From an uncultured Candidatus Peribacteria bacterium (GTDB lineage: Bacteria > Patescibacteriota > Gracilibacteria > UBA1369 > GCA-2718715), in contig CAYVIV010000001.1 of the NCBI GenBank assembly GCA_964451705.1, forward strand, positions 62,807 to 126,806: 64,000 bases of DNA, in the 5' to 3' direction. The notes beneath the pieces are model-generated. The model made no database searches, was not told the origin of the DNA, and was given only the letters and a program-made list of their open reading frames with translations. Positions 14,364-16,271 of the stretch are shown one piece after another (position 1 is the stretch's first letter; each line of letters starts with the position of its first letter). The position numbers were made by a program, and so were the translations under genes.

Positions 14364-16271
14364 ATGAAGATTTCAGTAAGCTCACAGATATTTGACTCTA
14401 TTTCGAATTTGCACTCAAACTTTGTCTATGTGGAGGGGCTGGAATTCAAGCAAGATATGCAACATGAGCTGTATGATGGTTTAAACGAAGTTTTTTCTAG
14501 ATTGCGAGGTCATAAATCTATATCTGAAGATAAACAAATTCAAATTTACCAGGATGTATTAGAACAAATTGGTTTGGCCCACGCTTCGGTTTCGACAAAA
14601 AAGATGGTCGATTTGATTGTAGAAAAGAAAAAAGATTTAATTTTGCACCATCCTATTATAGATTTTTATAACTATTTTAGTTTACATACTTTAACGCCAA
14701 TTGGTGCTTACGATGTGGATCGTATAGATGGGGATATTTTGATTAGAAAATCTAATCCCACAGATAGTTTTAAAAAACTTGGCCAAAGCAAGTCTGATAA
14801 AGTAACACATGATTCTGTAGTAATGGCAGATAATGTTGATATTATGTGTTTGGACTGGGTTTATAAGCAGTCTGAAGGACAGAAGATTAGACCTCGTACA
14901 AAAAATGTACTATTTAGAATCGAGTCTCTTAACGATGAGATTGCAAATGCTAAACTCTTGAATGAATTTAAAGAAGATTTGTCTAAATTTTTTAATTTTA
15001 AAACTATTCAGATTGAAACTTTAACTAATTCAGATCCGGAATCTACAATTAAGCTATCAAAAGAGGCAACTGCGCGAAGGGATAGGTACCAAGATTATAC
15101 AGATATTTTAGCTCGTGGAGTTTCGGATGTGATAGTCTACGATGATTTAATGGCGGACTTGATAGAAGGTAAAAAGTTGAAGGTCAAACATGGAGTTGAC
15201 CCAACTAAAAGATCTCTTACGCTTGGGCATGCTGTTAACTATGAAAAACTTCGGCAATTTCAGCAGAGGGGACACGAAATCCAGTTTTTAATTGGTTCTT
15301 TCACTGCTATGTTTGGAGATCCTACAGATAAGTCTGAGTCTCGAACTATGAGGACCAAGCAAGAGGTCATGGATATGGCTAAAAACTATATTCAGCAGGT
15401 AACTATGATTTTAGATAAGTCGAAGCTTAAGGTTTTTTATAATGATAAGTGGTACTCTAAAATGCCTGTCGAAGAGTTTTTACGGCTTTTATCATCCAGC
15501 ACTGTTGCGCGTATGTTAGAGCGAGATATGTTTCAAAAAAGAATTGAGGATGGACGAGAGATTGGTTTGCATGAGCTTATTTATCCTATTTTGCAAGGTT
15601 ATGACTCTGTAGAAATGCAGTCAGATTTAACAGTTATTGGTACAGATCAAACATTTAATGAGCTGCAAGCTAGACCTTTGCAGAAAGATAGGGGACTAAA
15701 GCCTCAGAATGTAATTAGTATGCACATGTTGCTTGGGACAGATGGTAAACTTTTAATGAGCCAATCTCAGGGGAATTATATAGCAATGGATGACACTGTT
15801 GATGATAAATTCGGTAAATTAATGAGCATCCCAGATTCGGCAATCCAAACGTATGCCAATGCTTTGTCGCGGTACTCACGTAAGGAATTGCAGGCTTTGT
15901 TTTCTCGTTTGGATGCTGGGGAGAACCCACGTAATGTCAAAATGGATTTAGCAGAGCATATTGTTGCAAATTTTCACGGTGAGAAGGCGGCTCAAAAAGC
16001 TCGAGCAGGATTTAAGGAAATTTTTCAAAATAAAGGCCTGCCCGAAGATATGCCTAAATTTGTTGCTAAACCTGAGCACACAATTCTAGAGATTTTGCAG
16101 TTGTCATCACTGGTAACCAGTGGTTCTCAAGCCCGAAGGTTAATAGCTCAAGGTGCGGTGAAGGTGTATGAAGGTGATAAGATTATGGATGTCTCTATGA
16201 GTTTTAAAGCAGGTCAAAAGCTAGTCCTGCAGGTTGGTAAACTTAAATTTTTGGATTTAACAATTGAATAG
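14364..16271 (+). CDS. tyrS: Tyrosine--tRNA ligase fused to an N-terminal B3/B4 (PheRS-beta editing-like) domain
   Basis: 635 aa. Residues ~90-190 (HHPIIDFYNYFSLHTLTPIGAYDVDRIDGDILIRKS...RTKNVLFRIES) fit the solitary B3/B4 domain pattern. Residues ~245-635 are a TyrZ-type TyrRS: GVDPTKRSLTLGH, FLIGSFTAMFGDPTDKSESR, GKLLMSQSQGNYI, KFGKLMSIPDS and a C-terminal S4 domain (SGSQARRLIAQGAVKV). Confidence 0.8.
   Translation: MKISVSSQIFDSISNLHSNFVYVEGLEFKQDMQHELYDGLNEVFSRLRGHKSISEDKQIQIYQDVLEQIGLAHASVSTKKMVDLIVEKKKDLILHHPIIDFYNYFSLHTLTPIGAYDVDRIDGDILIRKSNPTDSFKKLGQSKSDKVTHDSVVMADNVDIMCLDWVYKQSEGQKIRPRTKNVLFRIESLNDEIANAKLLNEFKEDLSKFFNFKTIQIETLTNSDPESTIKLSKEATARRDRYQDYTDILARGVSDVIVYDDLMADLIEGKKLKVKHGVDPTKRSLTLGHAVNYEKLRQFQQRGHEIQFLIGSFTAMFGDPTDKSESRTMRTKQEVMDMAKNYIQQVTMILDKSKLKVFYNDKWYSKMPVEEFLRLLSSSTVARMLERDMFQKRIEDGREIGLHELIYPILQGYDSVEMQSDLTVIGTDQTFNELQARPLQKDRGLKPQNVISMHMLLGTDGKLLMSQSQGNYIAMDDTVDDKFGKLMSIPDSAIQTYANALSRYSRKELQALFSRLDAGENPRNVKMDLAEHIVANFHGEKAAQKARAGFKEIFQNKGLPEDMPKFVAKPEHTILEILQLSSLVTSGSQARRLIAQGAVKVYEGDKIMDVSMSFKAGQKLVLQVGKLKFLDLTIE

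Follow-up and report, generated by a model that had tools for sequence, protein, structure and literature searches.

This work describes a gene in a 64,000-nucleotide stretch of contig CAYVIV010000001.1 from an uncultured Candidatus Peribacteria bacterium (hereafter the window, meaning the whole stretch of DNA that was analyzed). The gene, at positions 14364 to 16271, encodes a tyrosyl-tRNA synthetase (TyrRS) preceded in the same frame by a complete B3/4 domain of the family to which CtdA, the canavanyl-tRNA deacylase, belongs. Our preferred reading, to which we give a probability of roughly 0.55, is that the protein is a working TyrRS in which the CtdA-family domain, joined to the N terminus by a helix, would proofread in cis against a tyrosine look-alike. 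In the proposed mechanism, the TyrRS core would bind tRNA-Tyr through its helical and S4-like domains and charge it, after which the 3' end would pass to the tethered B3/4 domain, through translocation or immediate recapture. Should the tRNA carry a tyrosine look-alike, the ester bond would be hydrolyzed by the B3/4 domain; correct Tyr-tRNA-Tyr would be spared.

Architecture of the fusion and family of its N-terminal domain

The gene is a single stop-free open reading frame of 635 codons plus a stop on the forward strand (Table 1). Three Pfam regions are recognized in the product: B3_4 (PF03483) at residues 92 to 210 (E value of 9e-17; 61.6 bits, against a cutoff of 29.3), the class I Trp/Tyr catalytic domain tRNA-synt_1b at residues 270 to 555 (E value of 5e-63), and SYY_C-terminal/S4 at residues 561 to 620. 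The whole protein also scores 309.7 bits with the NCBIfam model tyrS (TIGR00234), for which the cutoff is 113.8. An earlier note on this DNA, made from the letters and their open reading frames, had described a solitary-type B3/4 domain fused to a TyrZ-type TyrRS with an S4 tail, and had pointed to alignment with B3_4 and TyrRS profiles as a check; scores above both cutoffs bear the description out. An AlphaFold2 model built on a 118-sequence alignment is confident across both domains, with a predicted local distance difference test (pLDDT) score of 92.7, a predicted template modeling score of 0.87, and pLDDT values of ∼90 to 98 within the B3/4 domain. A model based on 14 sequences (pLDDT of 65.6) was set aside in its favor. 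When the whole model was submitted to Foldseek, the core resembled the T. thermophilus TyrRS:tRNA complexes (9sdf/1h3e; TM score of 0.80); the top 50 matches were TyrRS chains only and as such give no structural reading on the B3/4 domain.

Both halves of the protein are under strong purifying selection. The ratio of nonsynonymous to synonymous substitution rates (dN/dS) was calculated relative to L029, an orthologue with 89% identity that stems from an independent metagenome. At a dS of 0.78, it is 0.079 in the B3/4, 0.069 in the catalytic, and 0.052 in the C-terminal domain. The architecture also repeats: in a collection of 5.8 billion proteins, 38 fusion clusters (at 90% identity) occur among the best 120 matches, annotated as unnamed or as plain tyrosine--tRNA ligase, and every genome of the window's family that is sufficiently complete carries the fusion, in open frames of 636 to 653 aa. 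Because it recurs across independent assemblies and throughout the family, with a dN/dS of ∼0.07 in both halves, the junction is not the frameshift or assembly artifact that the earlier note had entertained.

The source genome (934,586 bp in 54 contigs, estimated to be 95% complete) is that of a tiny, uncultured, Peregrinibacteria-like marine bacterium of the candidate phyla radiation (CPR). Apart from the fusion gene, a tyrS profile retrieved a single weaker match, which is trpS. No second tyrS, canonical or otherwise, was found in this 95%-complete genome by the profile or by tblastn with two other TyrRS types, which settles a point raised in the earlier note. There is a single tRNA-Tyr(GUA), 86 nt long and with its CCA end encoded, whose G1-C72 pair, A73, and long variable arm make up the bacterial identity set (PMC7373986). 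Given that the fusion is the only tyrS locus and that the bacterial tRNA-Tyr is normal, the B3/4-TyrRS fusion must, judging from the genome, be the cell's working TyrRS, with tyrosylation predicted from the sole copy, the tRNA-Tyr, and the dN/dS values.

To place the N-terminal domain, residues 1 to 245 were searched against 1.84 billion representative proteins, which gave 751 matches with an E value of ≤1e-3. The best 150 of these 751 matches are mostly single-domain proteins of 220 to 240 aa, many of them aligning from their first residue, and ∼125 stand-alone proteins of that length are collinear with the domain from residue 1. Since these relatives are collinear from the start, the module corresponds to an entire B3/4 protein of the free-standing type and not to a piece of PheT. 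When 14 such domains were combined into a profile (alignment A3), it matched the CtdA structures 9mkl and 9f7e with E values of 1.2e-32 and 2.5e-31, whereas its matches to the beta chains of phenylalanyl-tRNA synthetase (PheRS) reached only 7e-7 to 8e-4. By these profile comparisons, the domain belongs to the free-standing CtdA family and is not PheRS derived. The label of a PheRS editing-type domain, under which the earlier note had placed it, is hence superseded (E value of 1e-32 for CtdA versus ∼1e-6 for PheT). The accompanying analogy to hydrolysis of Tyr-tRNAPhe by PheRS becomes remote, because the domain is CtdA-like and its matches to PheT are weak. We also considered a recent duplication of the B3/4 domain of the organism's own PheT, which is encoded as a separate 805-aa gene with a strong B3/4 domain of its own (152 bits). 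This candidate was rejected, as the two share 25% identity over 71 aa, with an hhalign probability of 38% and a blastp E value of 0.004.

Pocket residues and partner synthetases

CtdA is a free-standing B3/4 protein that deacylates canavanyl-tRNA(Arg), with structures 9f7e (from P. canavaninivorans) and 9mkl (PMC10018355, PMC12449066). Its pocket comprises N105, G116, E118, C166, Q173, and I189, and activity depends on N105, G116, Q173, and the size of C166 (PMC12449066). The equivalents in the fusion are N103, G114, Y116, C162, Q169, and R185, and none of the six varies among the 14 closest fusion proteins. The domain thus has the family, the length, and four of the six pocket residues (N103, G114, C162, and Q169) in common with CtdA, and presumably, on the basis of sequence, the chemistry of hydrolyzing a mischarged aminoacyl-tRNA. 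Unlike CtdA, it lies covalently in frame with a synthetase rather than acting as a single-domain protein in trans, its partner is TyrRS and not ArgRS, and E118 and I189 are replaced by Tyr116 and Arg185.

In terms of the proposed mechanism, the catalytic and shape-determining residues of CtdA would be kept and those facing the tip of the side chain would be swapped (Glu to Tyr116 and Ile to Arg185). A pocket lined by Tyr116 and Arg185 would fit an aromatic substrate with an additional polar or acidic ring substituent; it is Arg185 that, as a conjecture, points to such a substituent. Candidate substrates would include L-DOPA, 3-nitro- or 3-halo-tyrosine, and m-Tyr, with D-Tyr as a further candidate that the pocket argument does not single out. 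Canavanyl-tRNA(Arg) is an unlikely substrate for the fused domain, given the Tyr and Arg at the E118 and I189 positions and the TyrRS partner.

The PheRS beta B3/B4 domain (E. coli 3pco and T. thermophilus) offers a more distant comparison. It shares the fold superfamily, the Asn (N254), and an aromatic residue at the F267 position, and it too is joined in cis to a synthetase that handles aromatic amino acids (the editing function being known for PheRS). Out of the E. coli PheT editing-site residues R244, N254, Y255, H265, F267, A312, G318, and E334, as listed in PMC12449066, only N254 and Y255 are matched, in addition to the aromatic residue at F267. In the fusion, H265 becomes Gly and E334 becomes Arg; the two positions that differ from CtdA coincide with PheT F267 (Y116) and E334 (R185). 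The insertions and the domain context differ as well: rather than being set between B1/B2 and B5 as in PheT, the domain is N-terminal on TyrRS.

The same CtdA-like module is found on other synthetases among the matches to residues 1 to 245. It is N-terminal on TyrRS (625 to 708 aa), is carried by ArgRS (860 to 891 aa, plus one protein of 1124 aa with two copies), occurs at either end of class I LysRS, is C-terminal on class II LysRS, and is also joined to ankyrin repeats. At the position of CtdA E118, all 27 TyrRS fusions have Tyr (22) or His (5), 9 of 11 ArgRS fusions have Glu, both class I LysRS fusions have Asp, and the two class II LysRS fusions have Glu or Tyr. The ArgRS-fused copies retain all six CtdA-type residues or near equivalents. 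The residue at this position follows the partner, as expected of a substrate-matched editing pocket; the pattern is descriptive only, because the partner classes mostly form separate clades, with about one independent pair. On the B3/4 tree, the TyrRS-fused state occupies three or more well-supported positions, and the residue is Tyr or His in each. Compared with the TyrRS fusions, the ArgRS and LysRS fusions carry the module on synthetases likewise regarded as non-editing, in some cases within the same order, but with an acidic pocket residue (Glu or Asp) rather than Tyr or His and, at times, at the C terminus.

Several relatives were recorded in passing. Four genomes of the same order (G025, G022, G024, and G018) encode an 850- to 910-aa ArgRS with an N-terminal CtdA-like domain (L020, L021, L022, and L023, respectively). 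In the first three, the Glu of CtdA and most of the remaining pocket residues are kept, and these are probable cis canavanine-type editing domains; L023 has His in place of that Glu. Free-standing CtdA-like proteins of 233 to 234 aa with Asp at the E118 position also occur in the order (L024 in G035 and L025 in G001:C139), and one of the two comes from a genome of the window's own genus that carries the TyrRS fusion as well. Three further variants are the ankyrin-repeat fusions (422 and 469 aa) and the 1124-aa ArgRS with two tandem B3/4 domains (P0022, P0099, and P0017).

Signature motifs and the synthetic site

The TyrRS half resembles other TyrZ-type enzymes (1h3e/9sdf, 6bqy, and 6byq) in its catalytic, helical, and S4-like domains, its tyrosine-binding residues, and its bacterial-type tRNA-Tyr, with 33 to 43% identity and a TM score of 0.8. 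It differs in its extra 250-residue N-terminal module and in both class I signature motifs, which read TLGH in place of HIGH and LMSQS in place of KMSKS. The loss of both lysines and of the first histidine, as the earlier note had read them, is exact: phmmer alignments to the enzymes of A. baumannii (6bqy), H. pylori (6byq), and T. thermophilus (1h3e) contain no gaps at the motifs, and no shift of the alignment brings canonical residues back. Tyrosine-binding residues Y407, Q411, and D414 and the GTDQ segment (G426-x-D428-Q429) are invariant in 118 sequences. K323 and R327 (K82 and R86 of B. stearothermophilus TyrRS) are conserved, and the other transition-state residues, including T281 and H289, are intact.

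The earlier note had paired these alterations with the fusion, a pairing that a wider comparison does not uphold. All 80 of the nearest unfused TyrRSs (∼395 aa, from Patescibacteria, Komeilibacteria, and others) have Gln for the second KMSKS lysine; they read KMSQS or KMGQS (PMGQS in two cases), mostly together with HLGY. In a tree of the TyrRS core, the KMSQS clade has 100% support, and the window's family forms a fusion subclade inside it. Fusions of two other families of the order, f5 and f18, combine TLGH with a canonical KMSKS. A back-translated KMxQSLGN pattern was found in 21 of 401 sampled Patescibacteria genomes, spread over roughly a dozen families, with no hits in controls. Since unfused enzymes share KMSQS/HLGY and fusions also stand on canonical backgrounds (HIGH/KMGKS and TLGH/KMSKS), a decay of the motifs coupled to fusion was rejected; by alignment, the altered motifs are a lineage trait of what appear to be working TyrRSs and are unrelated to the fusion. 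In a separate observation, one subclade inside the KMSQS/HLGY fusions (G005/L013, P0173 to P0178, and P0181) has canonical HIGH/KMGKS on a long branch (0.59); either both motifs reverted, or the catalytic core was recombined.

Only in the window's genus is the first lysine lost as well (LMSQS). The window's clade, three clusters down to 71% identity, keeps LMSQS/TLGH and carries ten replacements of its own at positions with ≥85% conservation, including H286T, K464L, R316M, D284S, and L469Q. Position 316 (window positions 15309 to 15311; alignment A2, P0001) is Arg, within TARF or TGRF, in every xMxQS TyrRS except those of the window's clade, where it is Met; Gln takes this position in the order's canonical KMSKS enzymes. 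Arg316 of the KMxQS enzymes may be a relocated positive charge. Lys282 is found only in the LMSQS clade. When aligned to B. stearothermophilus TyrRS, residues 282 to 284 fall between Thr40 and His45, the two residues that, as mutant studies by the Fersht group reportedly established, bind the ATP gamma-phosphate in the transition state. Potassium reportedly replaces the second lysine in human cytosolic TyrRS, which has KMSSS (Austin and First, 2002), and a lysine of the HIGH loop reportedly compensates in ArgRSs lacking KMSK (Sekine et al., 2001). By analogy, we infer that K282 and R283 may replace the lost KMSKS lysines, such that stabilization of pyrophosphate and the transition state would have been taken over by Lys282-Arg283, gained in the HIGH loop of this genus, in which the first lysine and R316 are lost. 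Like the human enzyme and the KMSK-less ArgRSs, the window's enzyme would be a class I synthetase that draws a charge from elsewhere; unlike them, it is without both lysines, and its putative substitutes are suggested by clade-specific cochange.

The features discussed above are collected in Table 1. The fusion gene lies among housekeeping genes, namely obg, pth, rplU, a divergent rluD-like gene, and recG.

Table 1. Positions in the window of the fusion gene, its domains, and its key residues
Feature	Window position	Strand	Basis
Whole gene: CtdA-like B3/4 domain plus TyrRS, 635 aa	14364..16271	+	Open reading frame, Pfam, NCBIfam
Complete CtdA-family (free-standing type) B3/4 aminoacyl-tRNA deacylase domain (by homology), residues 1-230	14364..15053	+	Pfam, profile, AlphaFold2
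N103, equal to CtdA N105 (essential pocket Asn of CtdA) and E. coli PheT N254	14670..14672	+	Alignment; PMC12449066
G114-A-Y116: G114 equals CtdA G116, Y116 replaces E118 (PheT F267); family-invariant	14703..14711	+	Alignment
C162...W165...Q169: equal to CtdA C166 and Q173; family-invariant	14847..14870	+	Alignment; PMC12449066
R185, at CtdA I189/E. coli PheT E334; Arg specific to Y-type TyrRS-fused domains	14916..14918	+	Alignment
Long linker helix from deacylase domain to TyrRS core, residues 231-250	15054..15113	+	AlphaFold2 helix 233-250
TyrZ-type TyrRS class I catalytic (Rossmann) plus helical domain, residues 251-555	15114..16028	+	Pfam, TIGR00234, phmmer, Foldseek
K282-R283, loop just before HIGH (DPT-KRS-LTLGH); candidate stand-in for KMSKS lysines	15207..15212	+	Alignment
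HIGH motif, reads TLGH (HLGH in solved TyrRSs)	15219..15230	+	Gapless alignment
YPILQGYD, conserved tyrosine-binding Y407, Q411, D414	15582..15605	+	Invariant in 118 sequences
KMSKS loop, reads LMSQS, without both lysines	15753..15767	+	Gapless alignment
S4-like C-terminal tRNA-binding domain, residues 556-635	16029..16268	+	Pfam SYY_C-terminal and S4; AlphaFold2

Distribution, alternative explanations, and significance

Across the 151 genomes of the order, a typical TyrRS is ∼400 aa long. Beyond the window's family, where a survey of related lineages, as suggested in the earlier note, shows the fusion to be family-wide, it occurs in families f5 (G013 and G043) and f18 (G026 and G038) of the order and, as an intact protein of 669 aa, in another family of the phylum (G195). 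Of 401 Patescibacteria genomes sampled evenly, ∼22 contain a CtdA-like domain of full length, and in 2 of these (the source genome and G195) a TyrRS fusion was confirmed. On the TyrRS-core tree, the fusion label needs 8 changes, with at least 5 gains or losses forced by well-supported branches; by this measure the fusion is recurrent.

Three irregular loci deserve separate mention. The fusion of G043 has a single in-frame TGA within the B3/4 domain, at the position of H108 (L019:396-398), which could mean that the domain is decaying, that the codon is recoded, or that the sequence contains an error. Genus g5 of the window's family has a second, unfused TyrRS of 404 aa beside the fusion (L017:521-1735 in G006; L018 in G008), with HLSH/LMSKS and a very long branch (1.5 changes per site); it has no counterpart in the source genome. 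In another family of the order, a 970-aa open frame (G032:C11:22178-24724) gives two successive TyrRS matches and may be a tandem or duplicated TyrRS.

Four explanations compete with proofreading of a tyrosine look-alike. The B3/4 domain could be catalytically dead and act as an additional tRNA-binding or recruitment module that raises the affinity for tRNA-Tyr, perhaps aiding a weakened synthetic site. Appended RNA-binding domains are common on CPR synthetases, the B2-TyrRS fusions being one example (PMC5370408), and the active site in the source genome's clade is unusually degenerate. We nevertheless judge this account unlikely, as the small-molecule pocket residues that matter in CtdA are invariant in the fusion and the residue at the E118 position goes with the type of amino acid that the partner handles; nor is there a coupling to a weak site, given that fusions also occur on canonical HIGH/KMGKS enzymes and that KMSQS enzymes are mostly unfused. 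The earlier note had listed proofreading, tRNA capture, and a new activity side by side. With the pocket residues invariant, proofreading is the best supported of these, and a role in tRNA binding only is less consistent with the data.

A second explanation, which we hold to be quite unlikely, is that the domain is a D-Tyr-tRNA-Tyr deacylase standing in for a missing D-aminoacyl-tRNA deacylase (DTD), providing chiral proofreading to the synthetase most prone to charging D-amino acids. The DTD family (PF02580) has no match in the fusion protein or elsewhere in the source genome, nor was it found in 9 other genomes of the family or in the fusion-bearing G013, G026, and G038, although 84 of the 151 genomes of the order have it. 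DTD is kept in 4 of 5 ArgRS-fusion genomes, and G043, the only fusion genome of the order with DTD, is the one with the in-frame TGA in its B3/4 domain. However, DTD is absent from 44% of the order regardless of fusion, the pattern involves only about three independent lineages, and G195 has a DTD gene alongside its intact fusion. The background absence and G195 are what took the force out of the idea. Selection by chirality is not known for B3/4 domains.

Under a third explanation, the domain would deacylate another mischarged tRNA in trans, such as Tyr- or m-Tyr-tRNA-Phe, and would be fused to TyrRS for coexpression only. Most relatives of the domain are indeed free-standing and trans-acting, and Y116 sits at the position of PheT F267. 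Yet PheT of the source genome already has its own strong B3/4 domain, and the module occurs on ArgRS with a CtdA-like (arginine-analogue) pocket and on LysRS with an acidic one, such that the partner seems to define the tRNA. Repeated independent fusion to TyrRS is also hard to explain through coexpression alone, and we consider this version improbable. Finally, a dead TyrRS half with a new role, or an open reading frame that is an assembly or frameshift artifact, is very improbable despite the replacement of both KMSKS lysines, the first HIGH histidine, and R316, as this is the only TyrRS beside a normal tRNA-Tyr, its dN/dS is 0.07, LMSQS/TLGH is retained across three clusters down to 71% identity, and the B3/4-TyrRS architecture is reproduced in dozens of independent assemblies.

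Proofreading in cis by the fusion has its own difficulties. TyrRS discriminates well against natural amino acids, so that the selective advantage of editing is not obvious. The partner classes of the module are largely separate clades on the domain tree, leaving about one phylogenetically independent contrast behind the pocket pattern. The proposed compensation by K282 and R283 rests on a single evolutionary event, and with R316 and the first HIGH histidine lost along with the two KMSKS lysines, the enzyme could be a weak one. A fuller statement, which we advance tentatively as a possibility, is that this TyrRS proofreads in cis with a Tyr/Arg-lined CtdA-type pocket, as one case of a general habit among CPR and other uncultured bacteria of equipping the "non-editing" Tyr, Arg, and Lys synthetases, and that its lysine-free KMSKS loop has had its charges moved to K282/R283.

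The synthetases listed with editing domains are Leu-, Ile-, and ValRS and Ala-, Thr-, Pro-, and PheRS; TyrRS is not among them (PMC7373986). In the literature searched, no B3/4-TyrRS fusion is described and "KMSQS" appears nowhere, and the words "fused" and "fusion" do not occur in the CtdA papers PMC12449066 and PMC12268091. Mukai 2017 (PMC5370408) describes the B2 (OB-fold) domain of PheRS, a domain other than B3/4, on an archaeal-type TyrRS in CPR. Editing modules appended to synthetases and class I enzymes that naturally lack KMSKS are known themes, and the present combination is new in the literature searched.

If TyrRS does proofread in this lineage, there would be an unrecognized threat to fidelity at tyrosine codons, posed by a natural tyrosine analogue or by D-Tyr. 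The newly discovered CtdA family, with canavanine as its one substrate so far, would likewise broaden into a modular set of proofreading tools. An editing TyrRS would also bear on genetic-code expansion, which is built on TyrRS scaffolds without editing. The LMSQS/TLGH site, for its part, is a natural experiment on the indispensability of the class I "signature" residues.

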